From Anaerolineae bacterium (lineage in GTDB: Bacteria > Chloroflexota > JAHJIN01), in assembly GCA_034435155.1 (NCBI GenBank), contig DAOTYG010000103.1, positions 1 through 16,084 on the forward strand: a stretch of DNA of 16,084 nucleotides, in the 5' to 3' direction. The notes beneath the pieces are model-generated. The model was not told the DNA's origin and did no database searches. It was given only the letters and a program-made list of their open reading frames with translations. Shown here piece after piece: positions 1 through 14,173 of the stretch (within the stretch, counting starts at the first letter, position 1; each line of letters opens with the position of its first letter). A program made the position numbers and the translations under genes.

Positions 1-431
1 ATGGTCTGCAACAGGGCGGTCTTGCCGGAGCCGGTGGTGCCGGCCACCAGGACGTGGGCCACGTCCGGGCTGCTGAGGCGCAGGCCCAGAACCCGCCCCT
101 CCTCGTCCAGGCCCAGCAGGGCGGTTTCTCGGGGCACTGGCCCGAAGAGCCGCTCGATGGTCCGCAACTGCACGGCCGGGGCGTCCGAACGTGGCAGTTC
201 CAGGACCACCTGACCACCCTGGCGGGTAACCCGGCAGGTTGGGGCATTCAGGGCCAGGGCCAGTTCCTCGCTCAGGTTGACCAGGCGGCTGACGCGCACG
301 CCGGAGGCCGGGTGCAGGTAAAAGCGCACCAGACGCGGCCCGACCGTGCCGCCGGTCACCGGGGCCTGCACGCCATGGCTCCACAGCACCCACTCGATAG
401 TGTCTGCCTGTCGCTCCAGAAGATCACGCAT
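1..431 (-). CDS. FtsK/SpoIIIE-family DNA translocase-like ATPase, N-terminal part (gene continues past window start); begins directly with the alpha domain, no membrane/linker region
   Basis: Manual minus-strand translation from ATG at 431..429: MRDLLERQADTIEWVLWSHGVQAPVTGGTVGPRLVRFYLHPASGVRVSRLVNLSEELALALNAPTCRVTRQGGQVVLELPRSD...PDVAHVLVAGTTGSGKTALLQT. It aligns with the FtsK motor region (PGPVITRFEL..PGVK..ISNLS.DLA..L....VRV...IPGK..VG.ELPN ... HLLVAGTTGSGKS), including the Walker A GTTGSGKT at 45..19. The frame stays open to position 1. Confidence 0.85.
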   Translation of the reverse strand, partial: MRDLLERQADTIEWVLWSHGVQAPVTGGTVGPRLVRFYLHPASGVRVSRLVNLSEELALALNAPTCRVTRQGGQVVLELPRSDAPAVQLRTIERLFGPVPRETALLGLDEEGRVLGLRLSSPDVAHVLVAGTTGSGKTALLQT

Positions 432-480
432 AGCCCTATCCCTGGGTCTCACCGGGTGCGGCTGCCAGCTTCTAGTCTTT

Positions 481-496
481 TAGAACATATGTTCTA
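481..496. promoter_or_regulatory. Cheo-type LexA/SOS box candidate (tAGAACATATGTTCTa, GAAC-N4-GTTC) lying just downstream of the -10 of the FtsK-like gene promoter
   Basis: Perfect 16-bp palindrome TAGAACATATGTTCTA. It matches the Gram-positive/Chloroflexi LexA consensus CGAAC-N4-GTTCG core and overlaps the predicted transcription start region. Confidence 0.5.
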
Positions 497-501
497 ATCC
501 T

Positions 502-530
502 ATTATACTGCCTGACCAGATCTTTGTCAA
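502..530 (-). promoter_or_regulatory. sigma70-type promoter for FtsK-like gene (minus strand: TTGACA-17-TATAAT)
   Basis: Reverse complement reads cTTGACAaagatctggtcaggcagTATAATagg. The -35 is at 530..525, the -10 at 507..502, with an exact 17-bp spacer. Confidence 0.5.
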
Positions 531-540
531 GGGCATGAGC

Positions 541-680
541 CTGACATCCGTGCGTAAAATTAAACGCATGAGGGTCCTGTCCCACTCCCCACTTCGTCGC
601 CGCTACGCGATGCGGGGAGAGGGAAAAGAATGTCCCGTAGGGGTTTTTGCAGCGGCTTCGCCGCCGCAAAAACCCTCACA
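541..680. repeat. Dispersed intergenic repeat family A, copy 1 (front module GACATCCGTGCGTAAAATTAAACGCATGAGG...CCCACTCCCCACTT plus hairpin GGGGTTTTTGC(A)GCGG-cttcg-CCGCCGCAAAAACCC at 640..676)
   Basis: Related copies sit at 1262..1395 and 3891..4040. The shared 16-bp CCGCCGCAAAAACCCC shows up as a PPQKP peptide in three unrelated ORF-track translations. Confidence 0.65.
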
Positions 681-711
681 AAGGTTTGGGGCAGGTTCCA
701 CGCCACTGGAC

Positions 712-739
712 AACAAAAGCCCCGACTGGCGTCGGGGCT
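712..739 (-). terminator. Rho-independent terminator downstream of ssb (stem AGCCCCGAC/GTCGGGGCT, then U-tract on the minus transcript)
   Basis: 9-bp GC-rich stem with a 4-nt loop at 718..739, followed on the minus strand by cttttgttg. It lies 7 nt after the ssb stop. Confidence 0.6.
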
Positions 740-745
740 TGGACG

Positions 746-1168
746 TTAAAACGGCAATTCGTTCTCCTCCAGGTCTGGTGGTGGCTCACCCTCTACTTCC
801 GGGGCCTCGGCTGCAGCCTCGCCACGCCCGGCCAGGAAACGCACGTTAAGGGCGTTGATCTCGAAAGAAGCACGTGGCTTGCCATCGTTGCCGGTCCAGA
901 CGCGCGGTCCGCCGGTCTCCGGGTCTGGACGCAGGCGTCCTTCCACCAGAACCGGCCGACCTTTGGTCAGGTACTGATTGCAGATCTCCGCTTGTTTACC
1001 CCAGGCCGAAACCCGGAACCAGACAGTCTCTTCTTGTTGATTGCCTTCCCGATCCGTCCACCGGCGCGAGGCTGCCACACTAAAGTGGGTCACGGCCTGA
1101 CCGGTAGGGGTATAGCGCATCTCTGGATCCCGTCCCAAATATCCCGCGATGATGATCTTGTGGTACAT
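746..1168 (-). CDS. ssb: Single-stranded DNA-binding protein (OB-fold SSB with acidic C-terminal tail ...EENELPF)
   Basis: 140 aa: MYHKIIIAGYLGRDPEMRYTPTGQAVTHFSVAASRRWTDREGNQQEETVWFRVSAWGKQAEICNQYLTKGRPVLVEGRLR.... This is the canonical SSB N-terminal OB fold plus a Gly/Glu-rich linker and a D/E-x-x-L-P-F tail. Confidence 0.92.
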   Translation of the reverse strand: MYHKIIIAGYLGRDPEMRYTPTGQAVTHFSVAASRRWTDREGNQQEETVWFRVSAWGKQAEICNQYLTKGRPVLVEGRLRPDPETGGPRVWTGNDGKPRASFEINALNVRFLAGRGEAAAEAPEVEGEPPPDLEENELPF

Positions 1169-1223
1169 TTGCGTCTCCTTTCCTCGGCCTGTTATAGAAA
1201 CTCGTTCAAGATTTGGTGATGAT

Positions 1224-1252
1224 ATTATACAATAAATGAGCGACTTTGTCCA
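1224..1252 (-). promoter_or_regulatory. sigma70-type promoter for ssb (TGGACA-17-TATAAT on minus strand)
   Basis: Reverse complement reads cTGGACAaagtcgctcatttattgTATAATatc. A GGAAAGGAGAC Shine-Dalgarno precedes the ATG. Confidence 0.45.
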
Positions 1253-1261
1253 GACTCAGTT

Positions 1262-1395
1262 AACATCCGTGCGTAATTAAACGCATGAGGGCCCTGCCCC
1301 ACTCCCCACTTTGCGCCCCTTCGCCGCCGCAAAAACCCCCAGAAGTGGGCCTGGGCCGGGCAGACCGCCGAGGAGCACAAATTTCCATACTATAC
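1262..1395. repeat. Dispersed repeat family A, copy 2 (front module plus right half of hairpin, plus module CAGACCGCCGAGGAGCACAAATTTCCATAC)
   Basis: TAACATCCGTGCGTAATTAAACGCATGAGGGCCCTGCCCCACTCCCCACTT...CTTCGCCGCCGCAAAAACCCCC aligns with copy 1. Its 3' module recurs inverted at 5455..5486. Confidence 0.65.
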
Positions 1396-1425
1396 TCGCC
1401 GACCCTGGGGCGTCCAAAAGTATTC

Positions 1426-1539
1426 GTAACTACCTACCCTCCCGCAGGTTTGGGCGCAATGACCAGCCCAGACGCCCAGATGACCGGCTGCATCGGTTGC
1501 CAGCCCCTTTCTAACCTGCGGGAGGGTTCAGGGTAATTC
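1426..1539. mobile_element. MITE-like element (~114 bp) with ~25-bp imperfect terminal inverted repeats GTAACTACCTACCCTCCCGCAGGTT / AACCTGCGGGAGGGTTCAGGGTAATTC
   Basis: The left TIR nearly matches the terminus of the IS66-like element at 15867..15889 (GTAACTGCCTACCCTCCTGCGAG). There is no coding capacity. The right TIR abuts or overlaps the stop codon of the cyclodeaminase-family gene. Confidence 0.6.
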
Positions 1540-2530
1540 ATAATTCTATCTCTACTCCCAGGCCCAACTCGGCAGCCCGGTTCAATACCCGCCGGGCCGC
1601 CGCCACGTCCTGCACTGCCACGCCCACGGACTTGAAACAGGTGATCTCATCGGCGCGCTCGCGGCCGGGCCTGCGCCCCAGGACGATCTCGCCCAGCTCG
1701 GCGTGGATATGAGACTCAGTGATGAGGCCCTGCTGCAAGGGGATGAGCAGGTCGCCGGCCTCGGCCAGCGACGCCTGTCGCGAGTCAATGACCACCTTCG
1801 CGCGGCGGATCGTCTCCGCGTCCACCTCTTGCATCTGAGGGGTATAAGCACCGATGGCGTTGATGTGCGTGCCCGGTCGCACGTCCCGGCCAGCGAAGAC
1901 CGGCGTGGTCGAGGTGGTGGCCGTGCAGATGACGTCGGCCTGACGCACGGCCTCGGCCGGCGATGCGGCCACGCGGACGTCGGCCGGGATGGGGCCGCCA
2001 CGCCCGCTCAGCTCGGCGGCGTAGCGGGCTGCCTGGTCTGGGTTGGCGTCGTAGACCAGGGCGCGGGCGATGGGCCGGACGGTGCAGACGGCCTCCAACT
2101 GCGTGCGGCCCTGTGTCCCGGCGCCAAAGATGGCCACGACCTCTGCGTCCGGCCGGGCCAGCAGGTCCGTGGCCGCGCCGGAGGCGGCGCCGGTGCGCAG
2201 CGCGGTGAGGTATGTGCCGTCCATCAACGCCACCGGCGCGCCGGTCTCACCGTCCACCACTACGACCACTGCGTGGATGGTAGGCAGACCCCGGCCCAGG
2301 TTGCGCGGGAACACCGAGACGATCTTGGCCCCCAGATCGCCAGAGCCGGCCAGGTAGGCTGGCATAAAGAGGGTCACGCCTTCGTGCTGGGGGACCGGGA
2401 GCTGGGTGCGCAAGGGCACGTTCGCCTCGCCGGCTGAGAGTTGTGCGAAGGCCGTCTTCATCACCTCGATGCACTCGCGCATGGGCAGGGCGCGCTGGAC
2501 GTCGTTTTTGGAGAGGAGCCGGAGTTTCAT
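1538..2530 (-). CDS. Ornithine cyclodeaminase / mu-crystallin family protein (possible ketimine/Pyr2C reductase)
   Basis: 330 aa with Rossmann motif [17 protein letters not shown] and the family-conserved block [23 protein letters not shown]. It overlaps the upstream oxidase gene by 4 nt, giving operon-like spacing. Confidence 0.88.
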
Positions 2531-2533
2531 CTG

Positions 2534-3691
2534 CTACACCACGTTATACTCGACGATCTGCTTGCCCTCCTGGAACCGACTCAGGGCCAGAGAGCTGATG
2601 TCCAGCGTATGTGCCTGACCGTCCAGGATCTCTTCCGCCAGCAGCAGGCCACAGGCCGGGCCGTGCATAAAGCCGTGGCCGGAGAAGCCCACGATGTTGT
2701 AGAATCCGTCCACCTCCGGCACCCGGCCCAGGATGGGATGGGCATCTGGCGTGACCTCATAGAGGCCGGCCCAGCGGCTGCTGATCCCCACTTCCTCCAG
2801 GAGCGGCATCCGGGCCATCGCCGCGTCAATATGTTCCAGCTCCCAATCTGGGTCCACGCGCTGGTCAAAGCCCGGCGGCTCATTCGGGTTGGACATGCCG
2901 GTGAGGATGGCCGGCCCCTCGCGGTGGAAGTAAAGGCTGCGGGCAAAATCAATGACAAAGGGGAAATCCGGTGGGAGCTGCGGGATCGGCGTGGTGACAA
3001 AGATCTGCCGTCGCACCGGGAGCACCGGGATCTCCAGACCGGCCATGGCGCCGATCTGGGCGGCCCAGGGGCCAGCGGCGTTCACCACGGCCGGCGTGGC
3101 GATCTCGCCCCGGTTCGTCTGCACGCTGCGCACCCGCCCGCTTTCTACCGTGATGCCGGTGACTTCCACCCCGGTCAGGCATCTGGCCCCCAGCCGCCGT
3201 GCCCCGGCGATATAGCCCTGCACCACGCTGTTGGGATCGGCCAGGCCGTCTTGGGGATACCAGGTAGCGGTCAGTACATCCTCCAGGGCCAGCAAGGGCA
3301 GACGGGCGCGGACCTCATCGCCGGTCAGCCACTCGGTCATCACGCCCAGCCGATGTTGCAGGGCCATGTTAGCCTGGAAAGCCCGCACATCCTCTTCTCT
3401 GGTCAGCAGGAACAGATAGCCGCAATAGCGCCGGTCAATCGCCTGGCCTAACTCTTCATGGAACCGGTCCAGCATGGGCAGGCTGAGGAGCGAGAGCCGG
3501 ACGTTGATCTCTGTGGCGAACTGGTAGCGGATGCCGCCGGCGCACTTGCCGGTGGACTCCTGCCCAAAGAAGGGATGGCGTTCCAGGAGTATCACGTTCG
3601 GGCAGCCCTTCCGGGCCAGGTGATAAGTGGTGCTGGCACCCATCACCCCGCCGCCGATGACCACAACCTCGGCAGTAGATGGTAGATCCAT
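2534..3691 (-). CDS. FAD-dependent oxidoreductase, DadA/SoxB/ThiO (D-amino-acid or sarcosine oxidase) family
   Basis: 385 aa with N-terminal dinucleotide fold VVVIGGGVMGASTTYHLARKG...LLER. The C-terminal HGFMHGPACGLLLAEEIL block is typical of this family. A GGGGGGA Shine-Dalgarno precedes the ATG. Confidence 0.85.
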   Translation of the reverse strand: MDLPSTAEVVVIGGGVMGASTTYHLARKGCPNVILLERHPFFGQESTGKCAGGIRYQFATEINVRLSLLSLPMLDRFHEELGQAIDRRYCGYLFLLTREEDVRAFQANMALQHRLGVMTEWLTGDEVRARLPLLALEDVLTATWYPQDGLADPNSVVQGYIAGARRLGARCLTGVEVTGITVESGRVRSVQTNRGEIATPAVVNAAGPWAAQIGAMAGLEIPVLPVRRQIFVTTPIPQLPPDFPFVIDFARSLYFHREGPAILTGMSNPNEPPGFDQRVDPDWELEHIDAAMARMPLLEEVGISSRWAGLYEVTPDAHPILGRVPEVDGFYNIVGFSGHGFMHGPACGLLLAEEILDGQAHTLDISSLALSRFQEGKQIVEYNVV

Positions 3692-3731
3692 TGTCCCCCC
3701 TTACAAGATCCCCACCAGTCATTTTGCTCTC

Positions 3732-3760
3732 ATTGTACTCTGGGCCAGGGGCTTTGTCAA
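3732..3760 (-). promoter_or_regulatory. sigma70-type promoter for oxidase/cyclodeaminase operon (TTGACA-17-TACAAT on minus strand)
   Basis: Reverse complement reads aTTGACAaagcccctggcccagagTACAATgag, about 35 nt upstream of the ATG at 3691. Confidence 0.45.
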
Positions 3761-3890
3761 TACTGGGGATGCCGGGGGATGGTTCAGAATTGGTTGAAAA
3801 TTTCTGTACCGCCGGGTCTTTATTGCCCCTCCCCCCTTATAGGCTGCTAAAACGGCTCCTTGGGGAAAGCCTGGATTCAGAGGGCGTGCT

Positions 3891-4040
3891 GACATCCGTG
3901 CATAACTTTTGTCAGGGAAGGAACAAGTTTTTGCGATGGCGAAGCCGCCGCAAAAACCCCTACGAGGTTCCCCTCCCCGAAGGGACATGAAATGGAGAGT
4001 GAGGCAGTGCTCTCATGGGTTTAATTTACGCACGGCTGTC
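3891..4040. repeat. Dispersed repeat family A, copy 3, arranged as a MITE: short left TIR GACATCCGTGCATAAC, central hairpin GTTTTTGCGatGGCG-aagc-CGCCGCAAAAAC, and an inverted full front module ending ...GTTTAATTTACGCACGGCTGTC
   Basis: The reverse complement of 3960..4040 aligns base-for-base with the 543..640 module of copy 1 (GACAGCCGTGCGTAAATTAAACCCATGAGAGCACTGCCTCACTCTCCA...). Confidence 0.6.
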
Positions 4041-4050
4041 AAGCGTGGGC

Positions 4051-4079
4051 TTGACTTGCCCAGGCGATTCGGATATACT
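4051..4079 (+). promoter_or_regulatory. sigma70-type promoter for ybaK-like gene (TTGACT-17-TATACT)
   Basis: cTTGACTtgcccaggcgattcggaTATACTgg. A GGAGACAGG Shine-Dalgarno precedes the ATG at 4123. Confidence 0.4.
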
Positions 4080-4122
4080 GGATGTGTCAGGCGCTTATCA
4101 TCTCGTATACTGGAGACAGGAT

Positions 4123-4602
4123 ATGCCCCAGCAATTGAGTGCCAGTGCCCGTAAGGTCCAGGAGGCCCTGGCTGCATACGGCCTTGACTGTCGCGTGGTG
4201 GAATTACCTGCCAGCACGCGCACTGCCCGGGAAGCGGCCGCGGCCGTGGATTGTCAGGTGGGCCAGATCGTCAAATCGCTGGTCTTTCGCGGCGTGCATA
4301 CGCAACGCCCGATCCTGGTGGCAGCAAGCGGGCTGAATCGCGTGAATGAGCAGCGGTTGAGCGAGCTGGTCTCTGAGCCGATAGAAAAGGCTGATGCTGA
4401 TTTCGTGCGGGCGCGTACCGGGTTCGCTATCGGCGGGGTGCCGCCTGTAGGACACGCGGAGCCATTACAGACGTTTATTGACGCTGATCTCTTGCAGTAT
4501 GACGAGATCTGGGCGGCGGCCGGCACCCCTCATGCCGTGTTCCGGCTTACCCCGGCGGACCTGATCCGGATCACCGGCGGTCAGGTGATCTCGATCACCT
4601 GA
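4123..4602 (+). CDS. ybaK: YbaK/ProX-type aminoacyl-tRNA editing deacylase (Cys-tRNA(Pro) deacylase family)
   Basis: 160 aa: MPQQLSASARKVQEALAAYGLDCRVVELPASTRTAREAAAAVDCQVGQIVKSLVF...GFAIGGVPPVGH...VISIT, which is the YbaK fold signature. The ORF track extends the frame back to 4015, but that stretch lies inside a repeat. The internal ATG at 4123 has a proper Shine-Dalgarno and gives the typical ~160 aa length. Confidence 0.85.
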   Translation: MPQQLSASARKVQEALAAYGLDCRVVELPASTRTAREAAAAVDCQVGQIVKSLVFRGVHTQRPILVAASGLNRVNEQRLSELVSEPIEKADADFVRARTGFAIGGVPPVGHAEPLQTFIDADLLQYDEIWAAAGTPHAVFRLTPADLIRITGGQVISIT

Positions 4603-4810
4603 CCTGAGATGGGCGAACCACCTGGTGGGTCGGTTCGGGCTTGCTCGTTACGCGGGTGATGCCCGGCCCGACCCTGTAAGGGGTTGGCCGTCAGGGACCC
4701 GGCGCAGCCCAGCCCCATATGGTTGAGCAACCGCTGGCTAAAGGTATTGGGATTAGTACCAAATCCCTATTTCGGGATCGCAGATCACGTCCGATGGTAC
4801 AAACTTCCTA

Positions 4811-4839
4811 TTGCCATAGAGTGACAGATCGTGTATAAT
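4811..4839 (+). promoter_or_regulatory. Consensus sigma70 promoter (TTGCCA-17-TATAAT) driving the flp-type pilin gene
   Basis: ctaTTGCCAtagagtgacagatcgtgTATAATagt. The predicted 5' UTR ends in the AGGAAAGGAGG Shine-Dalgarno, 8 nt before the ATG. Confidence 0.5.
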
Positions 4840-4901
4840 AGTAACGGAGGGTAAGGAGAGCTAACCCTTCCCTATCATCTCAGGAAAGGAGGTAAGCCGC
4901 C

Positions 4902-5060
4902 ATGTTGGTTCGCCGTGAGGAAGGGCAGGGTATGGTGGAGTATGCGCTGCTCATCGTGCTGATCTCCATCGCCGCCTTGGTCGTCCTGTTGCTGATCGGC
5001 CCGCAGATTCTCACCGCTTTTAGCATGGTCAACAGCGCGCTGGGCAAGGGCCTCACCTAG
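4902..5060 (+). CDS. flp: Flp/Fap-family type IVb prepilin (52 aa)
   Basis: Not in the ORF track because it is short. MLVRREEGQGMVEYALLIVLISIAALVVLLLIGPQILTAFSMVNSALGKGLT carries the Flp processing motif G/XXXXEY (G/QGMVEY) and then a hydrophobic helix. A strong Shine-Dalgarno, a consensus promoter and an intrinsic terminator flank it. Confidence 0.72.
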   Translation: MLVRREEGQGMVEYALLIVLISIAALVVLLLIGPQILTAFSMVNSALGKGLT

Positions 5061-5121
5061 TCTCGACTCTCGACCATATCCATCCAGCCCATCATCTCAA
5101 GCGTTCTTCACAGTTTATCCG

Positions 5122-5157
5122 AAACGGGGCCTCGTGAGAGGTCCCGTTTCACTTTTT
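5122..5157 (+). terminator. Rho-independent terminator after flp gene
   Basis: AAACGGGGCCTCgtgAGAGGTCCCGTTTcaCTTTTTCTCC: a stem of about 12 bp with one mismatch and a 3-nt loop, followed by a T-tract. Confidence 0.6.
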
Positions 5158-5278
5158 CTCCAGATGGGCCGGGTGCTAAATGAACCTTTTGCCGTCAGGT
5201 CAGGTAATCATAATGTTCGCACGAAAATGAAATACGCCGGTATGCTCGCGCGGGGTGTGCCACCTCGCGTTTCCCCCT

Positions 5279-5303
5279 CGTGCCCACGCTCCGCGTGGGC
5301 ACG
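5279..5303. repeat. Perfect hairpin palindrome CGTGCCCACGC-tcc-GCGTGGGCACG (11-bp stem); a paralogous palindrome CACCCACGC-aga-GCGTGGGTG lies at 5359..5379
   Basis: Two related palindromes built on CCCACGC-N3-GCGTGGG sit about 80 bp apart in the 530-bp flp-tgpA spacer. They look like REP elements or paired operators. Confidence 0.5.
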
Positions 5304-5454
5304 CAGCAGGGATTGGGCAACAGCCAGGCGTTCCTGGCCGCACGACCCGGCGTTTTGCACCCACGCAGAGCGTGGGTGTGAGCAACGGTGGTTTTCCCGC
5401 GCTGGCGGCGGGTCACACTCCCGGTGGTCGCCGCGAGCCAGGCCAGGAGGCTCA

Positions 5455-5544
5455 GTAGATGGAAATTCGTGCTCCTCGGCGGTCTGTGACCGCCGAGCGC
5501 GAAGCGGCGGGTCACCCAGTCAGGCCTGGGCCTGGCAGACCCGC
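5455..5544. repeat. Dispersed repeat family A fragment (inverted CAGACCGCCGAGGAGCAC(G)AATTTCCAT module plus direct GGCCTGGGCCTGGCAGACCCGC module)
   Basis: The reverse complement of 5455..5486 matches 1360..1391. The stretch 5523..5544 matches 1346..1367 on the same strand. Both copies translate to RPPRSTNFH in ORF-track artefact ORFs. Confidence 0.55.
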
Positions 5545-5593
5545 TTTGAGCAACTTTTTCCATCTATTGAGGCTATTTAGAGGATGGTGAACT

Positions 5594-7849
5594 ATGCGCA
5601 TCCGTGCCGGTTGGTTGTCGCTCTTTTGTCTGGGCTGTATGTTGCTCAGCACCGTGTGGTCTATTCAGGAGGCCAAATGGACCCCGGCGTTGGATTCGCT
5701 CGTCCCGGTCACATTGGCAGCCCTGATGATGGGCCTGGTGCTAAGTCATCTCCGCTATCCGCGCTGGGTGGCCAACCTGTTGGGCCTATGGGCCGGTGGT
5801 GAGTTTATCACCTTCCAGATGGCGGCCATCGTGGCCCCTGGCCCGACCTTCGAACTGCGAGAGCGGCTGCTCCTGGTGGGCTGGCGTCTCCAGCAATGGG
5901 GGCTGGCGGTCATCACTGGCGCGTCCAATAGCGATCATCTCATCTTTGTCCTACAACTCTCTGTGTTTCTGTGGCTTATTGCCTTTGTGGCGGCCTGGCT
6001 GGTGTTTCATAGCCATCGGCCGTGGTGGGCTATCGCCCTGACCGCGATCCCGCTGCTCATCAACCTCTATTATGCCCGCCATCTTAACCCCAACGGTTTT
6101 CTGATCTTTTTCACCGGCAACGCCCTCGTATTGCTGGTCCGGCACAACATCCAGATGCAGGAAGACGCCTGGCTGCGCGCCCGGGTCTCTCGAACGGCCG
6201 ATGCCCACTGGGACCTGCTGTGGACGGGCGTGACGATCACCCTGTTTTTAGTGACCGCAGCCTGGGTGGTTCCTGGCGCTTCCATCAGCGAGGCGGTGAG
6301 CACCGCCTGGGAAAACATGAGCCAGCCCTGGCAGGATTTCCAGATGCACTGGTATCGCCTGTTCTCCGCCCCGGAGGCCGGAGCCGGGACATTGACCCGC
6401 TTCGATGGCACATTACGTCTGACTGGGCCGGCCGTCCTGCCGGATACGCGGGCGTTAGAGATACACGCCCCTCGGCCCCATTATTGGCGAGCCGTAGCCC
6501 TGGATCACTATGATGGGCAGCAGTGGACGACGACCGCCGCCGTGGAGGTGTTGGTCGAGGAAGGCGATAATGCGATCCGGGATCGCGTTGAGCTGGCCTA
6601 CCGCCGGCGCGAGGTCATGGTCCAGCGGATCCAACCCCGGCGGCCCTATGGGGGTTTGCTGCTGGCGGGTGGGCAGTGGCTCAAGGCTGACCGCGCGGCC
6701 ACGATCAAGACTTATGTGGACCCGGCCAGCCCCACCATTGCCGCTGCTGAACTGTCTGATGCAGCCCTCGTTTACGGGCGGTTCCTCCTGTTCCGCAGCA
6801 GCGAATATGTGGTCGAGTCATCGTACTCGGTGGCCTATGTGGAGGAATTGCAAGGGGCTGAGACCCAATACCCGCCCTGGATGCGGACGCGATTCCTGCA
6901 ACTCCCGGCCAGCCTGCCGCAGCGCGTGCGAGATCTGGCCCTGGGGATCACCGCAGACGCGCCGACTCCCTATGACAAGGCTGCGGCCATCGAGCAATAC
7001 CTGCGCCAGAATTATACCTATGATCTCTTTGTCGGCGAACCGCCGGCGGAGGCCGATGCGGTAGACTATTGCCTGTTCGAGAGTCGGCGGGGATATTGCA
7101 GCCACTTTGCCTCGGCCATGACGGTGCTATGCCGGGCCGTGGGGGTCCCGGCACGCCTGGTCACAGGCTATAGCAGCGGCGAGTATGATGAGGAAGAACA
7201 CCTGTATGTGGTCCTGGAAAGCCATGCCCACGCCTGGGTGGAGGTCTTTTTCCCAGGGTATGGATGGGTTGAGTTTGAGCCTTCGCCGGGGGTGGCGGCC
7301 CTGGAACGTCAGCGGCAACCGGTGCCGACCGGCCCCTCCGGCAGCTCCCAACCCGGCGGTGGTGGGGAACCGCCCCCGGAGCGCGAGCTGCGCGGGGTAG
7401 AAGAGGTAGAAGTGCCCCCCGATACGACACCCGGCCTGGGACGCGGTTTCTCGTTGGGGTGGGGCGGTTGGTTAAGCCTGCTGATTGGGGTGCTGGTGGC
7501 CGTGCTCGCTGGCAGTGCCTGGGCCTGGTGGCGATGGGGCCTGCGCGGGCTGACGTTTGTGGATGCGGTCCACGAGCGAGTACGCCGCCTGGGGCGCTTA
7601 CTGGGGCTTAAGCAGGCTCCATATCAGACGGACCACGAGTATGCTGCCGTGTTGAGCGACATCGTGCCGGCCGGCCAGCCGGAGATCTCGACCATCACGA
7701 CGATGGTCGTCCAAAGTCATTTTGGGCGGCACAAACCCGGACCAGAAGACCATGACCGGGTCTGGGCAGCCTGGGAACAGTTACGGATCAAGATGTTGAG
7801 CCTGGTATGGCAACGGGTATCCGCCTGGCTGTCGCGCCAGGAGCACTAA
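5594..7849 (+). CDS. TgpA-like transglutaminase-domain membrane protein (N-terminal polytopic DUF3488-like region, transglutaminase-like Cys-His-Asp core, extra TM helix, C-terminal DUF4129-like domain)
   Basis: 751 aa with about 7 N-terminal TM helices. The core is [35 protein letters not shown]...[19 protein letters not shown], which is the transglutaminase-like superfamily signature. A late TM ([22 protein letters not shown]) precedes the tail [14 protein letters not shown]...SHFGRH. Confidence 0.85.
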
Positions 7850-7912
7850 GTTTTGTCTGGTTCCAGCCTGGCATGGGGGCAGGGGTATCTCGAACGTCGC
7901 GGTTAAAGCGGT

Positions 7913-7948
7913 GAGGGCACGGACGGGTGCCGGCCCATCCGTGCCCTC
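7913..7948. other. GC-rich hairpin between convergent genes (GAGGGCACGGA ... TCCGTGCCCTC, 11-bp stem)
   Basis: Inverted repeat with no U-tract on either strand. It may act as a factor-dependent terminator or an RNA stability element, which is uncertain. Confidence 0.3.
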
Positions 7949-8060
7949 GTGCAAAGGAGGAGAGGAGCAGTTGTTCACTGCGCCCCCTATGATACCTCAT
8001 TTTGTCCGTTCTCGCTGGTCGAATGCTAAACGTTTGCCTGACGCAACCCCTACGTTTACC

Positions 8061-8984
8061 CTACGATTGCCCTGTGCCAGCCAATGCCTGTGCGATCTGC
8101 GCGGCCACGGCGGCGTTATTCAGCAGCAGGGCCACGTTAGCGCGCAATGATTCGCCGCCGGTGAGGTCCTGAACCCGGGCCAGTACAAAGGGGGTGAGCC
8201 GGCTGCCGCGCACACTCTGCGTCTCTGCCTCGGCCAGGGCCTGGGAGAGAGCGGCCTCCGCGGCCTGGCCGGCCAATGCCTGCTCCGGCGGCACCGGCAC
8301 GGTCACGAGCACCCCCTGACCCCCCAGTTCCCAATGCGTCCGCGCGATGGCCGCCGCCTGCGCCGGATCATCCACGCGCGCATCCACCGGCAAACCGCTG
8401 TGCGGCGAATAAAAGGCCGGGAACTCGGCGGTGCCGTAGCCCAGGACCGGCACCCCCCACGTCTCCAGATATTCGCGGGTCTTGGGTAAATCGAGCAGGG
8501 ACTTGGCCCCGGCACAAACTACCAGCACCGGCGTCCGGGCCAGCTCCGGCAGGTCCGCCGACACGTCCCACGTCTCCTCCGCACCCCGGTGCACCCCGCC
8601 GATCCCCCCGGTGGCGAAGACGCGAATCCCGGCCTGGTGCGCGATCCACATGGTGGCAGCCACAGTGGTGGCACCATCGGCCCGCTGCGCCACGGCGACG
8701 GCCAGGTCCCGGCGGCTCACCTTGCGCACCTCATCACTGCTCGCCAGCCATTCCAGGGCCTCATTGTTCAGGCCCACGCGAATACGGCCGCCCAGGATGG
8801 CGATGGTGGCCGGGATGGCCCCGTGCTGGCGTACCGTGGCCTCTATGAGCAGGGCCACCTCCAGGTTCTGGGGCCGGGGCAGCCCGTGGGCGATGAGGGT
8901 GGACTCCAGGGCCACTACCGGCAGGCCGGCGCCCAGCGCAGCCTGCACCTCCGGGGCGAGGTGAAGCAGTGTTTCTTCAGGCAT
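8061..8984 (-). CDS. psuG: Pseudouridine-5'-phosphate glycosidase
   Basis: 307 aa and collinear with YeiN/PsuG along its whole length: PEVQAALGAGLPVVALESTLIAHGLPRPQN, ATIAILGG, KVSRRDL, GATTVAATM, VFATGGIGGVHRGAEETWDVSADL, VVCAGAKSLLDL, TREYLETWGVPVLGY and LTGGESL. Confidence 0.95.
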   Translation of the reverse strand: MPEETLLHLAPEVQAALGAGLPVVALESTLIAHGLPRPQNLEVALLIEATVRQHGAIPATIAILGGRIRVGLNNEALEWLASSDEVRKVSRRDLAVAVAQRADGATTVAATMWIAHQAGIRVFATGGIGGVHRGAEETWDVSADLPELARTPVLVVCAGAKSLLDLPKTREYLETWGVPVLGYGTAEFPAFYSPHSGLPVDARVDDPAQAAAIARTHWELGGQGVLVTVPVPPEQALAGQAAEAALSQALAEAETQSVRGSRLTPFVLARVQDLTGGESLRANVALLLNNAAVAAQIAQALAGTGQS

Positions 8985-9083
8985 GGGATTCAGTTCCCAG
9001 AGTGACGAACGACCGCTGACGAATGACCACCGACGGGGGACTGCGGTCAGCGATCTGCTGTCGGCAGTCGGCGGTCAGCGGGC

Positions 9084-10007
9084 CTACTCGCGGTACAGGG
9101 CATCCACGCTCAACTCCCGGCTCACGGCGTCTGGGGAACAAAGGGTGATGGTGGCGGCAGAGACGCCCAGGCGCACCGCTTCGTCCACCGGCAGGTCGTG
9201 GAGGAGGCCAAAGACCACGCCGGCGGTGAGGGCGTCGCCGGCCCCGGTGGCATCCACGACCGGGCAGCGGATGGCCGGGATGTGGCCGCTGACCTCCGGT
9301 GTGGCATAGACCACGCCGCCGGCCCCCAGGGTGATGAGGGCTACCTGTACGCCGGCCGCCACCATCTGCTGAGCCGCCTGGGCCGCATCGGCCTGGGTGT
9401 AGATGTGACAGCCGCACAACACCTCGGCCTCGGCCAGGTTGGGAGCCATGATGGTGCAGCGGTCCAGGTAGCCCTTGAACCGCTCGGCCAGCACCACCGA
9501 GGTGGGGTCCACGCAGACCGGCACGTCGTATCGTTGGGCCAGGGAGAAGGCCCGGCGGATGGCTGGCGGGTGCAGGTTGCCATCCAGGACCAGCATTCCA
9601 GCACCACGGATGAGACGGCGGTGCGCTGAGATATACTCCGGGGTGATGGCGGCGGCGATACCCATGTCGTCCAGGCCCACGGCCAGCGAGCCGTCCGTGT
9701 CCACGATGGCCAGGTAGGTGGCGGTGGGGTATTCGGCCGTGCGGAGCACGTGGCTCAGGTCCACGCCGGCCGCGGCCGTCTGGGCGAGCACCTGCTCGCC
9801 AAAGGGGTCCTCGCCCACGGCGGTGAGGAGGGCCGTGGGCACGTCCAGCCGGGCCAGGTTCTCGGCGACGTTGCGACCCACGCCACCGGCGGTGCGGCGC
9901 ACCGTGCCGGGGTTGGAGGTGGCCGGGACCAGTGGCTCGCGGGTGCGGCCCCGGATGTCCAGGCCGGCGATACCGATGACGACAACGGGGGAGACATTCA
10001 TGAGCAC
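9084..10007 (-). CDS. psuK: Pseudouridine kinase (PfkB/ribokinase family)
   Basis: 307 aa with PfkB motifs NPGTVRRTAGGVGRNVAENLARL near the N-terminus and the catalytic ATGAGDA near the C-terminus. The overall pattern matches YeiC. The ORF-track start is a GTG at 10007, and an ATG two codons in (10001..9999) is an alternative start. The overlapping 363-aa ORF 8977..10068 is a GC-rich shadow frame. Confidence 0.9.
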   Translation of the reverse strand: MLMNVSPVVVIGIAGLDIRGRTREPLVPATSNPGTVRRTAGGVGRNVAENLARLDVPTALLTAVGEDPFGEQVLAQTAAAGVDLSHVLRTAEYPTATYLAIVDTDGSLAVGLDDMGIAAAITPEYISAHRRLIRGAGMLVLDGNLHPPAIRRAFSLAQRYDVPVCVDPTSVVLAERFKGYLDRCTIMAPNLAEAEVLCGCHIYTQADAAQAAQQMVAAGVQVALITLGAGGVVYATPEVSGHIPAIRCPVVDATGAGDALTAGVVFGLLHDLPVDEAVRLGVSAATITLCSPDAVSRELSVDALYRE

Positions 10008-10025
10008 CTCGGAACCAATCCTCGT

Positions 10026-10994
10026 TTAGACCGGCTTGAGCACCGCCAGCGCGATCCCCCGGACGCACAGGCTGGGGTCTTTCCTGAACTCGTATATCTC
10101 CTGGTATTCTGGATTCGCTGATTTTAGGTAACAGCCCCGATTATCGCGGCAGAACCGCTTGACCAGCGATTCCGTTCCTCCCTCACACCCTCGCTCTACC
10201 ACCACGATCTGCCAGTGCTCCGCATCGGGTTGACCGTGAACCAGCACCAGATCACCATCGTGAATCCCGGCATCCACCATGCTATTGCCCCTCGCCTGGG
10301 TGATAAAATACTTGCCGGTTGCCCTGAGTGTGGGCAGGTGGGCGGCTATCCCCCCCACCGGTTGCGGCAGATATGTCTTACCACCTATCAGTACCTCTCC
10401 GGTGGCCGTAAGTTCGATCTGCTCCCAGATTTGCGAGACGTACTGCCACGGAGGGCCGGCCGAGGAAAGCTCCATTCGGGGAATCCAGCGGGCGGTTTCC
10501 CAACACTCGTTCAGCACCCGTTCCATCTTTTCACACCACGAACGCCGCTCTTTATAGCCATACCCGATAGGCCGCTGCGCGCAAAGGCTATGAAAGCAGG
10601 CATCTGCCATCTGATATTCAGCCTGTACGTCGGCCAATGGTTGTTGGCGCAGGCTGGCGAGGTTGCCCAATATGACGTGCATCACCGCCTCTCCCTGACG
10701 GTTCCCCCGACAACGAAAAACCTGGCACGCCTCCTGGTAACAGGCCAGAGTCTGGTCGAGGTCGTTCAGTTCTTGCCGGATGATCCCTTTTACCACCAGG
10801 GCCTGCGCTGGCGCATTTGCATCTACCAGTCCATCTATTGCGCCACAATCCTGCTCCGCCCACTTCAAAGCCTCCCCCCATTCTCCCCGCTTGCAGGCTT
10901 CTAAAGCCTGCTGGCAAGCCCGCGATAGTTTGCCGGTGGGGCTGGTCAGTTCCAACAACGAGATGATCGTCCGCACAGATTCCTGTTCTTTCAT
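10026..10994 (-). CDS. S24 (LexA/UmuD-type) serine peptidase-domain protein with a ~190-aa non-HTH, helical/TPR-like N-terminal domain
   Basis: The C-terminus has the S24 signature ITQARGNSMVDAGIHDGDLVLVHG...HWQIVVVE...GTESLVKRF, with the Ser in GNSM and the Lys in VKRF. The N-terminus (MKEQESVRTIISLLELTSPTGKLSRACQQALEACKRGEWGEALKWAEQDCG...) has no recognisable winged-HTH and looks helical-repeat-like. Confidence 0.7.
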   Translation of the reverse strand: MKEQESVRTIISLLELTSPTGKLSRACQQALEACKRGEWGEALKWAEQDCGAIDGLVDANAPAQALVVKGIIRQELNDLDQTLACYQEACQVFRCRGNRQGEAVMHVILGNLASLRQQPLADVQAEYQMADACFHSLCAQRPIGYGYKERRSWCEKMERVLNECWETARWIPRMELSSAGPPWQYVSQIWEQIELTATGEVLIGGKTYLPQPVGGIAAHLPTLRATGKYFITQARGNSMVDAGIHDGDLVLVHGQPDAEHWQIVVVERGCEGGTESLVKRFCRDNRGCYLKSANPEYQEIYEFRKDPSLCVRGIALAVLKPV

Positions 10995-11011
10995 CTGCCA
11001 TACCCTCCAAT

Positions 11012-12232
11012 CTACGAGACCCGTTTGAATCGGCTCTCCAGCATGTTCAAGGTCTTGACGATGTCATCTGGCAGATAGATGCTACGAGCGGATGCCGTCC
11101 GCTTGATCATGTCAATGAAGCTCAAAACGACCAGGTTCTTGGAGATCCGCTGGCCCTGGCGGGCCATCTCGGCGAACAGCCTGGCGGTATCCGTCAACAT
11201 ACTGATGCGGATCTCAGCCCGGGCCTGCATGGCGATCTTGTCGCCCAGGGCTTTGCCCTCCGCGATCGTTTTCGCCTCCTCACGGGCGCGCTCTGCCTGC
11301 CAGGTATCTATCCATTGCTGGAGCACCTTGTCTTGTAATTCGATGTCCCCCAGGGCCACACTCAGGATCCGGGCACCCAGCCGGGTGGTAGATTGGCGCA
11401 GGCTGTTCTCCAACTCTTTCTGCACGGCCGCCCGGCACTCGGGCTTGATGAGTTCGTCGAGGGTGTAGCGGGCCAGGATGGACCTCAGCGTGCCCTCCGT
11501 ATCGCCGATCACCACCAGCTTGATCCAGCTCATCACCCGGTCAGGCTCGGTTCGCCAGGCCTCCCGGATCCACTTGCAGGTGGCCGCCTTGAAGATGTCC
11601 TCTTCCTTGTCGCCGACCTGGAAGCGCACATCCGCGTTGTACTTGATGGGGATCCCGTCGTGGGTGATCGCGCTCACCTTGAACTCCCACCGTTGCGGGC
11701 GCAGGTCAATGATGTCCCAAACCTTCTCAAAGGGGTCCAGGCGGGGCGGGGGCAGCGGAAACGGCGGGACATGGGAGCCACGAAAGACCCGGCTGAGCCG
11801 GCCGGCCCGCTCCAGCACCACCGCGCTGTCGTTGTAGAGGACCAGGCCGCACGGCCCGCCGACCCTTCGGACCACGTTGCTGCCCGTAGCGATCCGGCCC
11901 TCCTTGATCACCAGGTAGGGGCCGCCAGACATCTGCCCCAGCAGACGGGTGCTCAGGAAGGCCCGGCCTTCCTTGTCCTTTTCCAGCCCATACAGGGAGC
12001 GCACGAAGCGGCCGGCTACCTGCCAGCCGATCCATAGCGCGGTCAGGCCGGGGATCATGCCCAGCAAAACTGGGCCGCCCAGGTCGAGGAAAGAGGTGGG
12101 CCAGGGCCGGATGCCCAGTTGAAAGGACAGATAGACGGCCCCCAGGCTCAACAAAAACCACAGGCCCACGACGAGCAGGCCCGCCAGGGCGATCTTGACG
12201 AAATAGACCAGGGCACGACGGGGATCAAACAT
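11012..12232 (-). CDS. SPFH/Band-7 (stomatin/prohibitin/HflKC-like) domain membrane protein with 2 N-terminal TM helices and a C-terminal coiled-coil
   Basis: 406 aa. Its SPFH core VVLERAGRLSRVFRG..IDLRPQRWEFKVSAITHDGIPIKYNADVRFQVGD fits the pattern seen in QmcA/HflK (V.ERFG...R...PG......IDLR.Q.......T.D...V.VD..V.F.V.D). Charged helical segments follow, such as QAERAREEAKTIAEGKALGDKIAMQARAE. Confidence 0.75.
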   Translation of the reverse strand: MFDPRRALVYFVKIALAGLLVVGLWFLLSLGAVYLSFQLGIRPWPTSFLDLGGPVLLGMIPGLTALWIGWQVAGRFVRSLYGLEKDKEGRAFLSTRLLGQMSGGPYLVIKEGRIATGSNVVRRVGGPCGLVLYNDSAVVLERAGRLSRVFRGSHVPPFPLPPPRLDPFEKVWDIIDLRPQRWEFKVSAITHDGIPIKYNADVRFQVGDKEEDIFKAATCKWIREAWRTEPDRVMSWIKLVVIGDTEGTLRSILARYTLDELIKPECRAAVQKELENSLRQSTTRLGARILSVALGDIELQDKVLQQWIDTWQAERAREEAKTIAEGKALGDKIAMQARAEIRISMLTDTARLFAEMARQGQRISKNLVVLSFIDMIKRTASARSIYLPDDIVKTLNMLESRFKRVS

Positions 12233-12257
12233 AACTTGCCTCTGAGATCGTCTGGGG

Positions 12258-13922
12258 CTATCGCCCCCGCCGCATACCGGTGAGCAGAGCGTCTTCGGAT
12301 GGGGCAGGTAGTTGGGCTGGTTCTTCCCCTGGCTCTACCATGGTCAGGGCGTCAATCAACTGAAACACCAGGGCTTCGTCAGAGAGGTGGACGGCTTCTC
12401 GCTCCAGGATGCGGGTGAGGGTAACCATCATCTTGAGCTGGGCCTGAGTCCACACCGGGGCTAATTGAAGAATGCGTTCGGCTTTGGTCCGGCCGATCTC
12501 GATCTCGATCCGCCGCTGCCAGTTCGCGGCCCAGTTCTTGATCCGCTGTTCCACGATCTTGTCAGGGGGCATGATGTTGCTGATCCCACCCCCCACCATC
12601 TCGATGCCGTAGGGTCTCATCGCTTCCCGCACCCGCTCTCGAAAGGTTTTGGCGATCTCGACGCGGGGGTCCCCCGGCGCATGTAGCGCGTTGCAGGTGT
12701 AATTCAGGATGATCTCCTTGAGGATCGGCGGCCCAATGATCAGCACCAACTCGTCCCAGGGGGTCTTGGAGATGTCTTCTCTGGCCTGCTTATTTTCGTC
12801 GCGTTCCCATTTGTGCTCGATCAGGGTGCGACGAAAAACGGCGTCCAGGACAGCATCTCGATTATAGGGGTACGAATGGCCCAACGTCGGTTGTCGCCCA
12901 TCGGCGCCGATCCGGTGCGGGAAAAAGGTAAAGATGGTGACCGTGATGCCATCCTGGGTCTCGGCCTTGATCCCCTCGTGGATGCGCAACTGGGGGCGCA
13001 GGTCCACCACGGCATACAGGTCCTCGTATTTCTCGGTGAAGCTCAGGCCCGGCGGGACTACCCGCAGGCGGAAGCCGGTGGTGGTTACGGCCACGTGATT
13101 GCAGTCATTGAGGATGATGCCCGGCCCGGCCAGGAACTGGCTGAAGGCATTGCCGGGCACGCGGGGGTCTGGTTTCTCCTGCTCCTTGTTCTCCTGAGTC
13201 TTCCAGTCCTCGATGACATAGTAAGGGTAGTTTGTGCCCAAGGCGAAGGTGATCAGGCTGCGGAAGGCCTGCCGCCGGTGATGTTCCTGGCGCGCTCGCT
13301 CATCGTTCTCCAGGGGGAGGATCAGGCCGGAGAGGAAATAGAGGAACCCCCAGAAGATCAACACCGCCGGCGCGGCGATCAACAGCAAACCCAGGCGTTC
13401 AGCGATCCCGTAGCCGATCAGGCAGGTGAGGCAGAACCAGAACCAGACCAGGCTCAGGGGTTTGACCCCCTTGCCGCGCAACACGGCCTTGCTGAATAGC
13501 CAGGGGCCCAGGATGCCGACCAGAGCGATGGCGATGAGCAGGCCCAGGGCGCCGGGCCATTCCCTCAGGCCCCCCAGCAGCGCGGGGGGGTAAAAACAAA
13601 GAAGGGCTGCCAGTACGGCAAACCCTTCCACGATCAACGCGCCGATCATCTCGGTAAGAAAGTAACCCGCGGCCCCGGCCAGGACGTAGGTCCACACGGC
13701 GATCTCCAGGATCGTCATCTCCGGGCGCTCCAGGGCCTGGGGCTGGACCAGGGCCACCGGGAGGAGGCCGAGCAAGGTGAACGCCTCCATGAACAGCGTG
13801 ATGCCGCCCAGGATCGCCAGGCCCTTGCTCCCCCCGGCGCCCTTGAGCCGACCCAGGGCATAGCCCGCGGCCGCCGCCAGGCCGCACGCCAGCCCCATCT
13901 CCACGAGGAGCGTTATCACCAT
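12258..13922 (-). CDS. Polytopic membrane protein (about 6-7 TM helices) fused to an SPFH/Band-7-like domain; paralog of the downstream gene
   Basis: 554 aa. Roughly the first 200 aa are hydrophobic helices. The SPFH-like core is VAVTTTGFRLRVVPPGLSF...VVDLRPQLRIHEGIKAETQDGITVTIFTFFPHRI and shares the DLRPQ block with the 406-aa paralog. The gene sits 25 nt upstream of that paralog. Confidence 0.7.
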   Translation of the reverse strand: MVITLLVEMGLACGLAAAAGYALGRLKGAGGSKGLAILGGITLFMEAFTLLGLLPVALVQPQALERPEMTILEIAVWTYVLAGAAGYFLTEMIGALIVEGFAVLAALLCFYPPALLGGLREWPGALGLLIAIALVGILGPWLFSKAVLRGKGVKPLSLVWFWFCLTCLIGYGIAERLGLLLIAAPAVLIFWGFLYFLSGLILPLENDERARQEHHRRQAFRSLITFALGTNYPYYVIEDWKTQENKEQEKPDPRVPGNAFSQFLAGPGIILNDCNHVAVTTTGFRLRVVPPGLSFTEKYEDLYAVVDLRPQLRIHEGIKAETQDGITVTIFTFFPHRIGADGRQPTLGHSYPYNRDAVLDAVFRRTLIEHKWERDENKQAREDISKTPWDELVLIIGPPILKEIILNYTCNALHAPGDPRVEIAKTFRERVREAMRPYGIEMVGGGISNIMPPDKIVEQRIKNWAANWQRRIEIEIGRTKAERILQLAPVWTQAQLKMMVTLTRILEREAVHLSDEALVFQLIDALTMVEPGEEPAQLPAPSEDALLTGMRRGR

Positions 13923-13937
13923 TGCCTCTTGCCCTCG

Positions 13938-13950
13938 CTGTTCCGAACAG
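13938..13950. promoter_or_regulatory. Perfect 13-bp palindrome CTGTTC-C-GAACAG in the leader of the SPFH operon (candidate operator)
   Basis: It lies between the predicted -10 (13977..13972) and the AAGAGG Shine-Dalgarno of the 554-aa gene. Its half-sites are GTTC/GAAC in the reverse order of the Cheo box at 481..496. Confidence 0.4.
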
Positions 13951-13971
13951 CCAGCCTTTACGCGTGCTTAG

Positions 13972-14000
13972 ATTATATCATCTTTCAGGCGAATGCGCAA
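13972..14000 (-). promoter_or_regulatory. sigma70-type promoter for SPFH-S24-psuKG operon (TTGCGC-17-TATAAT on minus strand)
   Basis: Reverse complement reads aTTGCGCattcgcctgaaagatgaTATAATcta. It gives a leader of about 40 nt to the ATG at 13922. Confidence 0.45.
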
Positions 14001-14069
14001 TACTTCGATGACCACGATTCAGGGCCACGGTAGGGCCTACCCGGTGAAATCCTTTGTTGGACAAAACCG

Positions 14070-14098
14070 CCTACCCTCCCGCAGGTTTGGGCGCAATG
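14070..14098. repeat. Solo/degenerate copy of the IS66-like terminal repeat (CCTACCCTCCCGCAGGTTTGGGCGCAATG), identical over 29 bp to 1437..1465 of the MITE
   Basis: Exact 29-bp match to the MITE's left arm. Similarity decays downstream (to about 14130) and no right TIR is present. Confidence 0.55.
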
Positions 14099-14144
14099 GG
14101 TCAGACCAGAGCATGTTTCGGCTTGCATATTAGGATGTCGGATG

Positions 14145-14173
14145 TTGACAGATGGTGTGGTCTCTGGTATAAT
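14145..14173 (+). promoter_or_regulatory. Consensus sigma70 promoter TTGACA-17-TATAAT upstream of the 4-TM protein / SIR2 gene pair
   Basis: gatgTTGACAgatggtgtggtctctggTATAATttt. Both hexamers are perfect and the spacer is 17 bp. Confidence 0.5.

Follow-up and report, generated by a model that had tools for sequence, protein, structure and literature searches.

A predicted LexA operator at the core promoter of a short FtsK motor operon in Chloroflexota

What would be gained by placing a FtsK-type DNA motor that carries no membrane anchor under the control of the DNA damage response? The question is raised by a stretch of 16,084 nucleotides from an Anaerolineae bacterium of the phylum Chloroflexota (GenBank assembly GCA_034435155.1, contig DAOTYG010000103.1, positions 1 to 16,084 of the forward strand; hereafter the window). 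An initial annotation of this window described a Cheo-type SOS box (GAAC-N4-GTTC) lying 5 nt behind a TTGACA-17-TATAAT promoter on the minus strand, ahead of the gene of a stand-alone FtsK-like protein, here called short FtsK, and proposed that LexA bound to the box would occlude initiation. Every coordinate of this layout holds (Table 1): a 16-nt perfect palindrome, TAGAACATATGTTCTA, whose GAAC-N4-GTTC core occupies 483-494, is separated from TATAAT by 5 nt (501..497), and the ATG of short ftsK lies at 431..429 on the minus strand. The predicted transcription start, at about position 495, is covered by the palindrome (481-496). The explanation that we regard as highly probable is an SOS operon, that is, a LexA operator on the start of a promoter serving a Chloroflexota operon composed of an alpha-beta motor, variable small proteins and a membrane partner.

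Within the window the palindrome stands alone. It is the sole GAAC-N4-GTTC in the 16 kb and the sole match to the longer form TAGAAC-N4-GTTCTA with up to two mismatches allowed, and the single three-mismatch match falls within a coding region; at the base composition of the window, 0.19 and 0.00024 occurrences of the two patterns, respectively, would be expected by chance. The promoter matches its consensus at 12 of 12 positions in a promoter scan. However, sigma-70-like sites are overabundant here (14 vs. 3.6 expected, including another 12/12 site and three 11/12 sites), so a perfect promoter by itself is less remarkable in this window. An Rfam search of the window returned no match.

The box was then compared across orthologous loci (40–55% protein identity) taken from reference genomes and metagenomes, which left 71 independent loci with enough upstream sequence once near-duplicates had been removed; six contigs of the same species, being 99% identical, were uninformative for box conservation. 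A perfect GAAC-N4-GTTC occurs within 350 bp upstream of the motor gene at 36 loci and 351–1100 bp upstream at 7, a one-mismatch box occurs at 5, and at 6 the motor gene lies immediately behind a boxed lexA gene, giving box evidence in 54 of the 71 loci, with no box found at the other 17. The density of perfect boxes is 1.79 per kb in the upstream windows vs. 0.078 per kb elsewhere, and most of the boxes counted as elsewhere are lexA promoters or sites farther upstream of short ftsK. Perfect cores found off both kinds of promoter were rejected as chance matches: they lack the A/T flanks, and those checked lie within coding sequence. When the pattern was tightened to AGAAC-N4-GTTCT, all 51 sites in 451 kb were upstream of short ftsK or lexA and none was elsewhere. 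The scan for further boxes that the initial annotation had proposed thus returned no second site in the window and, in relatives, strict sites confined to short-ftsK and lexA promoters.

The consensus of 43 sites reads T70%-A93%-GAAC-A77%-T-A-T65%-GTTC-T93%-A65%, to which the operator of the window is identical. The inner flanking A and T are each 93% conserved though the flanks were outside the search pattern, and the spacer favours A-T-A-T. A strong promoter (9–12 of 12 positions) accompanies the box at all 36 loci with a perfect box, reaching at least 11/12 at 28 of them. With respect to this promoter, 28 of 43 boxes start 0–16 nt past the −10 hexamer, 13 lie in the spacer, one lies over the −10 hexamer and one is upstream of the −35 hexamer, so that 42 of 43 overlap the core promoter or come directly after it. 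A relative with 84% identity (L040) retains both promoter and box. These comparisons strongly support the palindrome as a real operator of LexA type, placed on the transcription start of a consensus promoter in an arrangement conserved across the phylum, and the proposed siting of a Cheo-type operator where it would block initiation is borne out, in that the box is kept in orthologues of 40–55% identity.

Which protein would bind the box? In Firmicutes and Actinobacteria, LexA has GAAC-N4-GTTC as its established motif, and variants have been reported in Chloroflexi (PMC4951493). LexA is by far the likeliest binder, because autoregulated lexA promoters share the motif and lexA is physically linked to the operon. 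The lexA gene adjoins the short-ftsK operon in 14 representative loci (13 co-directional, 1 divergent), and a perfect box lies within 220 bp upstream of all 14 of these lexA genes. Four linked LexA proteins were tested; they scored 157–180 bits against the LexA equivalog cut-off of 110.95 and contain both LexA_DNA_bind and Peptidase_S24 domains. The comparison with a lexA promoter, which the initial annotation had called for, therefore gave the same box at the lexA promoters of relatives, to which the comparison was confined.

An elaborate version of this linkage is seen in a Chloroflexia metagenome-assembled genome (L007, 3560-7150), where two tandem lexA genes, encoding paralogues that are 41% identical, lie directly upstream of short ftsK, each with its own boxed consensus promoter. 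In one promoter a single box occupies the spacer, and in the other a box stands on either side of the −10 hexamer. The LexA paralogues are followed by a Cys-rich 169-residue open reading frame and then by short ftsK without a promoter of its own, which may make the arrangement a lexA2-led operon.

The regulated gene runs off the window edge at the Walker A motif (GTTGSGKT), and its complete form was read from longer contigs of the same species (L001 and L002), which were found as contigs encoding an identical SSB. The complete short FtsK, which starts as MRDLLERQADTIE, has 364 residues (9811-10905 in L001; likewise in L002) and consists of FtsK_alpha (E = 4e-14, residues 5-80) followed by FtsK_SpoIIIE. 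The motor residues GTTGSGKT, DE and the invariant R236, R240, R242 and Q253 are conserved, and the closest solved relatives by sequence match to the PDB are the FtsK motor domains of E. coli and P. aeruginosa (E = 2e-42). An AlphaFold (AF2) model of a 90%-identical protein (P0001; mean predicted local distance difference test 89.7, predicted template modelling score 0.86) superposes on FtsK motors with template modelling (TM) scores of 0.76–0.81, compared with 0.60 for TcpA and 0.58 for EccC. Fold and motif conservation suggest that short FtsK is a hexameric ATPase that translocates double-stranded DNA.

Neither FtsK_gamma nor FtsK_4TM matched short FtsK even at E ≤ 10, and only about 35 low-confidence residues follow the beta domain in the model. 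A hidden N-terminal membrane domain, whose discovery would have made the gene an ordinary ftsK, was sought and rejected: the operator contains an in-frame stop codon, 16 codons ahead of the ATG, the promoter is directly upstream, and orthologue alignments begin at residue 1. The initial description of a stand-alone motor starting at the alpha domain with no anchor is thus correct, whereas the likeness that it drew to SftA and Tra-type translocases turned out to be loose, as short FtsK has no gamma or winged-helix domain.

A database search placed short FtsK in a very large family of 336–390-residue proteins with the same architecture. Among the matches listed, the named sources were Anaerolineae, Thermoflexia, Caldilineales and Chloroflexia, with a 377-residue match labelled Burkholderiales as the sole exception. 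Stand-alone alpha-beta homologues with 30–35% identity also occur in Omnitrophota and a few other phyla (L015-L036, L112-L119), without Cheo boxes or the Chloroflexota membrane partner described below. Some family members (P0059, P0084, P0088 and P0106) carry about 90 conserved extra C-terminal residues (LAxRLxPWW...WGAKT...LFG...G-x-FW...AI-x-x-L) where the gamma domain is missing, a segment that may bind DNA or a partner in place of that domain.

Downstream of the motor, past the edge of the window, 44 representative loci encode a small membrane protein. It has 131 residues in L001 (11427-11822) and 110–160 across the operons. A short, basic N-terminus leads into a first transmembrane helix, an inter-helix loop (Q/N)R(L/M)SxDAMA and a second transmembrane helix with G-x3-G-x5-P; an Arg-rich stretch, a Pro/Gln-rich linker containing PP-[VI]-[VI]-V-[VI] (PP-V-V-V-V) and a C-terminal motif R-x-F-x-V-[IV]-G-[ED] follow. 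The AF2 model shows a confident transmembrane helical hairpin (residues 2-54) and a disordered tail, which by the positive-inside rule is probably cytoplasmic. A profile search found 358 homologues, the best 120 of which have 114–170 residues and no Pfam domain, are annotated as hypothetical and, where named, come from Chloroflexota only; the sequences form a coherent family.

Variable small soluble proteins accompany the motor as well: a 95-residue protein in the window species, which in some loci lies between motor and partner, and a Cys-rich 150–170-residue protein elsewhere. In L007 and L092 the gene of the latter separates the SOS promoter from the motor (329-781 in L092, a homologue of the L007 frame); in L090 and L093 a different open reading frame, of about 120 residues, does so. 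Two motor–partner pairs are present on different contigs (L120, 4843-6417; L121, 4922-6441) of one Caldilineaceae genome (GCA_046328725.1), each with a box in the promoter spacer and an unusually long leader of about 240–400 nt. Because this genome holds two boxed operons, short FtsK is favoured as an accessory rather than the sole housekeeping copy. Together, these loci establish the regulatory layout and gene composition of what is predicted to be a Chloroflexota SOS operon.

How such an operon could work may be outlined as follows. A LexA dimer on 481-496 would cover the start of the sigma-70-type promoter and block initiation, and DNA damage would free the promoter through RecA-stimulated self-cleavage of LexA; repression and damage induction of the operon are predicted from the operator and its linkage to lexA. 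The small membrane protein could then use its tail motifs to tether the soluble motor in trans at the membrane or septum, making the two a split FtsK, and the induced motor would pump unsegregated or repaired chromosomal DNA away from closing septa as division resumes after repair. Such pumping would proceed without sequence-directed orientation or Xer activation; since the gamma domain is absent, the motor would neither read the FtsK orienting polar sequences (KOPS) nor activate XerD. A tethered, damage-induced motor that clears DNA from closing septa is our tentative proposal, plausible but held with less conviction than the SOS operon itself.

Several observations weigh against this explanation. 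The LexA motif was taken from relatives rather than from the lexA, recA or uvrA promoters of the window genome itself. The Cheo box was not found at the 30–35%-identical homologues in Omnitrophota and other phyla, and 17 of the 71 orthologous loci were classed as boxless. Among these, the sequence upstream is shorter than 500 bp at several, a co-directional open reading frame precedes the motor at others, and L007, although classed as boxless, sits behind a boxed lexA about 1.5 kb upstream. SOS control is thus widespread but not necessarily universal. As for the split FtsK, no fusion of motor and partner occurred among the best 120 of the 358 partner homologues, and longer motor homologues (450–530 residues) have soluble C-terminal extensions only, with no partner fused.

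Among the alternatives, the one that survives best, though we consider it unlikely, is that short FtsK is the housekeeping divisome FtsK in split form, with its membrane and linker part encoded by the downstream gene and with partial SOS control like that of E. coli dinH-ftsK. Besides this precedent, the transmembrane helices and Pro/Gln-rich linker of the partner resemble the N-terminus and linker of FtsK, family members are annotated by NCBI as "DNA translocase FtsK", and a second, canonical FtsK was not demonstrated in any carrier genome, the hit tables comprising the best 120 matches and the literature searched yielding no example. However, the partner has two transmembrane helices rather than four and no similarity to FtsK_4TM, and the missing gamma domain implies that canonical KOPS reading and XerD activation are missing too. 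The presence of two copies in one genome also speaks against the sole housekeeping motor, as do the consensus-strength, often doubled operators on the core promoter, which suggest tight repression.

Somewhat less likely again is that the small membrane protein is the key product of the operon, acting as a damage-induced division inhibitor, and that the motor has a separate or auxiliary role. The small membrane division inhibitors YneA, SosA, ChiZ and DivS are encoded beside lexA in phyla that use the Cheo box, and small size, membrane location, LexA control and lexA adjacency are the typical genomic signature of SOS division inhibitors. The partner is likewise small, membrane-bound, frequently adjacent to lexA and predicted to be LexA-controlled. 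However, its conserved motifs are placed in the cytoplasmic tail by the positive-inside rule, whereas the Gram-positive inhibitors act via extracytoplasmic segments; in 44 loci its gene is strictly tied to that of the motor, and no LysM or other known inhibitor domain was found in it.

We regard as improbable that some regulator besides the master LexA binds the palindrome, either a second LexA paralogue dedicated to the operon or an unrelated repressor with a similar site. This alternative draws on L007, where the second paralogue, with its two boxes, directly precedes the operon. However, both L007 paralogues pass the LexA equivalog cut-off, the adjacent gene in L008 and L026 is of LexA1 type (54.7% and 57.3% identical to L007 LexA1), and the motif is the one already established for LexA in related phyla. 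Even under this alternative, control would pass through a self-cleaving SOS-type repressor of the S24 family.

We give similarly little weight to a different function for the same parts, in which the operon would be a damage-induced DNA transfer machine, a gamma-less and direction-agnostic pump mounted on the small membrane protein. DNA would be moved across the membrane or cross-walls between cells of filamentous Chloroflexota, where it could supply templates for recombinational repair. By analogy, this would be a bacterial counterpart of the ultraviolet-induced archaeal Ced system or of the spread of double-stranded DNA by TraB through Streptomyces hyphae.

The initial annotation had also raised the edge of an integrated mobile element, and the proposal that short FtsK is a translocase of conjugative type, like TraB or TcpA, bordering such an element or a prophage, with the box of an SOS-responsive element, is very improbable and already largely refuted: anchor-less FtsK-like ATPases do occur in actinomycete conjugative elements and phages, and generic matches to the phage FtsK/SpoIIIE-like phrog_1358 and to mycobacteriophage genes (34% identity) were obtained, but the unit is conserved in the phylum, where lexA recurs beside it and the flanks otherwise vary among metabolic or transporter genes, neighbour annotation over 16 kb on one side and 6 kb on the other gave no genes for an integrase, a relaxase or replication, plasmid and phage homologues reach at most 35% identity (tblastn), PADLOC and PHROGs match only the generic motor, and the fold is nearer to FtsK than to TcpA. 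Following the gene into longer contigs, as had been suggested, gave a complete gene for 364 residues with metabolic or transporter genes at its flanks, and of the two functions first put forward, the chromosomal SOS function is favoured.

Returning to the SOS operon, its regulatory idea is not new, since ftsK genes under SOS control have precedents. In E. coli the dinH promoter makes ftsK SOS-inducible (PMC4080785), and ftsK has been listed among the LexA targets of the Corynebacterium/Mycobacterium network (PMC2724278). These systems share with the Chloroflexota operon a LexA operator at the promoter of an FtsK-type translocase, which links damage to chromosome clearance at division. However, their FtsK is full-length and essential (4TM anchor, linker and alpha-beta-gamma motor), and the E. 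coli operator is CTGT-N8-ACAG. The Chloroflexota version differs from dinH-ftsK in its 364-residue alpha-beta-only motor, separate membrane partner, Cheo-type box, frequent lexA linkage and, sometimes, two copies per genome. Its operator resembles the Cheo-box operators of Firmicutes, Actinobacteria and Dehalococcoides in dyad, spacing, core-promoter placement and lexA autoregulation. The flanks are T-A...T-A (TAGAAC-N4-GTTCTA), in contrast to C/TC...G/GA in M. tuberculosis; the B. subtilis box also has C/TC...G/GA flanks.

SftA of B. subtilis is a cytoplasmic FtsK-family motor without transmembrane helices that exists alongside a membrane-bound translocase. Short FtsK is soluble as well but lacks the gamma domain and the N-terminal targeting region of SftA, which has about 950 residues; we know of no report of LexA control of SftA. 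Streptomyces TraB and TcpA of pCW3 are, like short FtsK, hexameric DNA pumps of the FtsK/HerA fold that can work with small membrane partners. TcpA is more distant than FtsK (TM-score 0.60 and 18% identity vs. about 0.8 and 30%), and short FtsK scores only 22 bits against the NCBIfam TraB cut-off of 800 and lacks a mobile-element context. Archaeal Ced DNA import is induced by ultraviolet light and combines small membrane CedA proteins with the FtsK/HerA-type ATPase CedB. The resemblance, a damage-induced ATPase of the FtsK/HerA superfamily paired with small membrane proteins, is an analogy only; the match to CedB (25.6 bits vs. a cut-off of 700) indicates no meaningful sequence relationship, and the domain of life and the regulator differ.

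In the open-access literature searched, no prior description was found of a LexA-controlled short FtsK in Chloroflexi or of the regulated gene set in Anaerolineae, Caldilineae and Chloroflexia. As far as this literature shows, the alpha-beta-only FtsK product, the dedicated membrane partner, the recurrent lexA linkage and the conserved membership in the SOS regulon of Anaerolineae, Caldilineae, Chloroflexia and relatives are new. Most Chloroflexota SOS regulons are essentially uncharted, and the short-ftsK operon supplies a second highly conserved member beside lexA, together with an operator consensus for the phylum, TAGAAC-N4-GTTCTA. Its product is unusual in pairing an FtsK reduced to the alpha-beta core with a phylum-specific, uncharacterised membrane protein whose disordered tail carries a pair of short conserved motifs. 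Should the partner tether the motor, the two would form a natural split FtsK in which pumping is uncoupled from guidance by KOPS and from activation of Xer, and what DNA translocation contributes to damage recovery could be tested directly. The clean promoter–operator pair, with consensus −35 and −10 hexamers and operator, could also be used in genetic tools for thermophilic Chloroflexota.

Table 1. Features of the window around the short-ftsK promoter, with positions counted from the first letter of the window.
Feature	Position	Strand	Basis or remark
−35 hexamer TTGACA of the short-ftsK promoter	530..525 (525..530)	minus	sequence and promoter scan
−10 hexamer TATAAT of the short-ftsK promoter	507..502 (502..507)	minus	17-nt spacer from −35
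LexA operator (Cheo-type SOS box) TAGAACATATGTTCTA	496..481 (481..496)	palindrome, no strand	predicted; uniqueness and orthologue consensus
Predicted 5′ untranslated leader, about 64 nt	432..495	minus	start inferred from −10 position
Short FtsK gene, first 143 codons (alpha domain and Walker A)	1..431	minus	Pfam; gene runs off window
ssb	746-1168	minus	Pfam SSB, E 2e-30
Terminator-like hairpin ending the ssb transcript	717..740	minus	10-bp stem, 7 GC pairs, T-rich tail
Composite intergenic repeat abutting the −35 hexamer	539-690	minus	species-specific
Composite intergenic repeat, copy	1256-1345	minus	upstream of ssb promoter
Composite intergenic repeat, copy	3924-4044	plus	upstream of promoter at 4051 (YbaK-like gene)

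The gene next to short ftsK is ssb, which the initial annotation had described as an independently transcribed neighbour. Independent transcription is plausible, given its own promoter (11/12; 1252..1224) and the terminator-like hairpin, which probably marks the upstream boundary of the short-ftsK transcription unit. A functional partnership with the motor was rejected: the ssb promoter is boxless, and ssb adjoins short ftsK only in contigs of the same species and at none of about 70 other loci. The other genes of the window are ordinary chromosomal ones, encoding an ornithine cyclodeaminase, a DAO oxidoreductase, YbaK, a transglutaminase, an IndA-like protein, SPFH proteins and others.

The composite intergenic repeat consists of a long hairpin GGGTTTTTGCGGCGGCGAAGCCGCTGCAAAAACCC, a variable part and an arm GTGGGGAGTGGGRCAGGRCCCTCATGCGTTTAATT(TT)ACGCACGGATGT, the last containing an imperfect palindrome CATGCGT-N7-9-ACGCACG. 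Each of the three copies ends about 10 nt upstream of the −35 hexamer of a strong promoter (short ftsK, ssb and the YbaK-like gene) in the same orientation. As a conserved co-regulatory site the repeat was set aside: it is present in same-species contigs and missing from L040, which keeps the promoter and box. It could be a promoter-carrying or promoter-targeting element that resembles miniature inverted-repeat transposable elements or repetitive extragenic palindromes, or else a regulator site peculiar to the species. Further intergenic pairs, 1428-1461 with 14065-14098 (94%, direct) and 1361-1388 with 5459-5486 (96%, inverted), suggest several small dispersed repeat families in the intergenic regions of this genome.

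Elsewhere in the window, 10026-10994 (minus strand) encodes a 322-residue protein that combines a TPR-like region at its N-terminus with a Peptidase_S24 domain of the self-cleaving LexA/UmuD type at its C-terminus (Pfam E = 9e-16) but has no LexA DNA-binding domain. It scores 45 bits with the NCBIfam lexA model, below the cut-off, and has no Cheo box nearby; it may respond to damage as a protease-domain protein of a different kind. At 14916-15866 (plus strand) lies a candidate gene for anti-phage defence, encoding a SIR2_2 domain protein whose C-terminus runs into an AAA_16/STAND-like ATPase region. Upstream of it are an 8xMP membrane protein gene (14337-14885), with a perfect extended −10 consensus promoter at 14145, and genes for two large SPFH/Band-7 proteins (11012-13922, minus strand).

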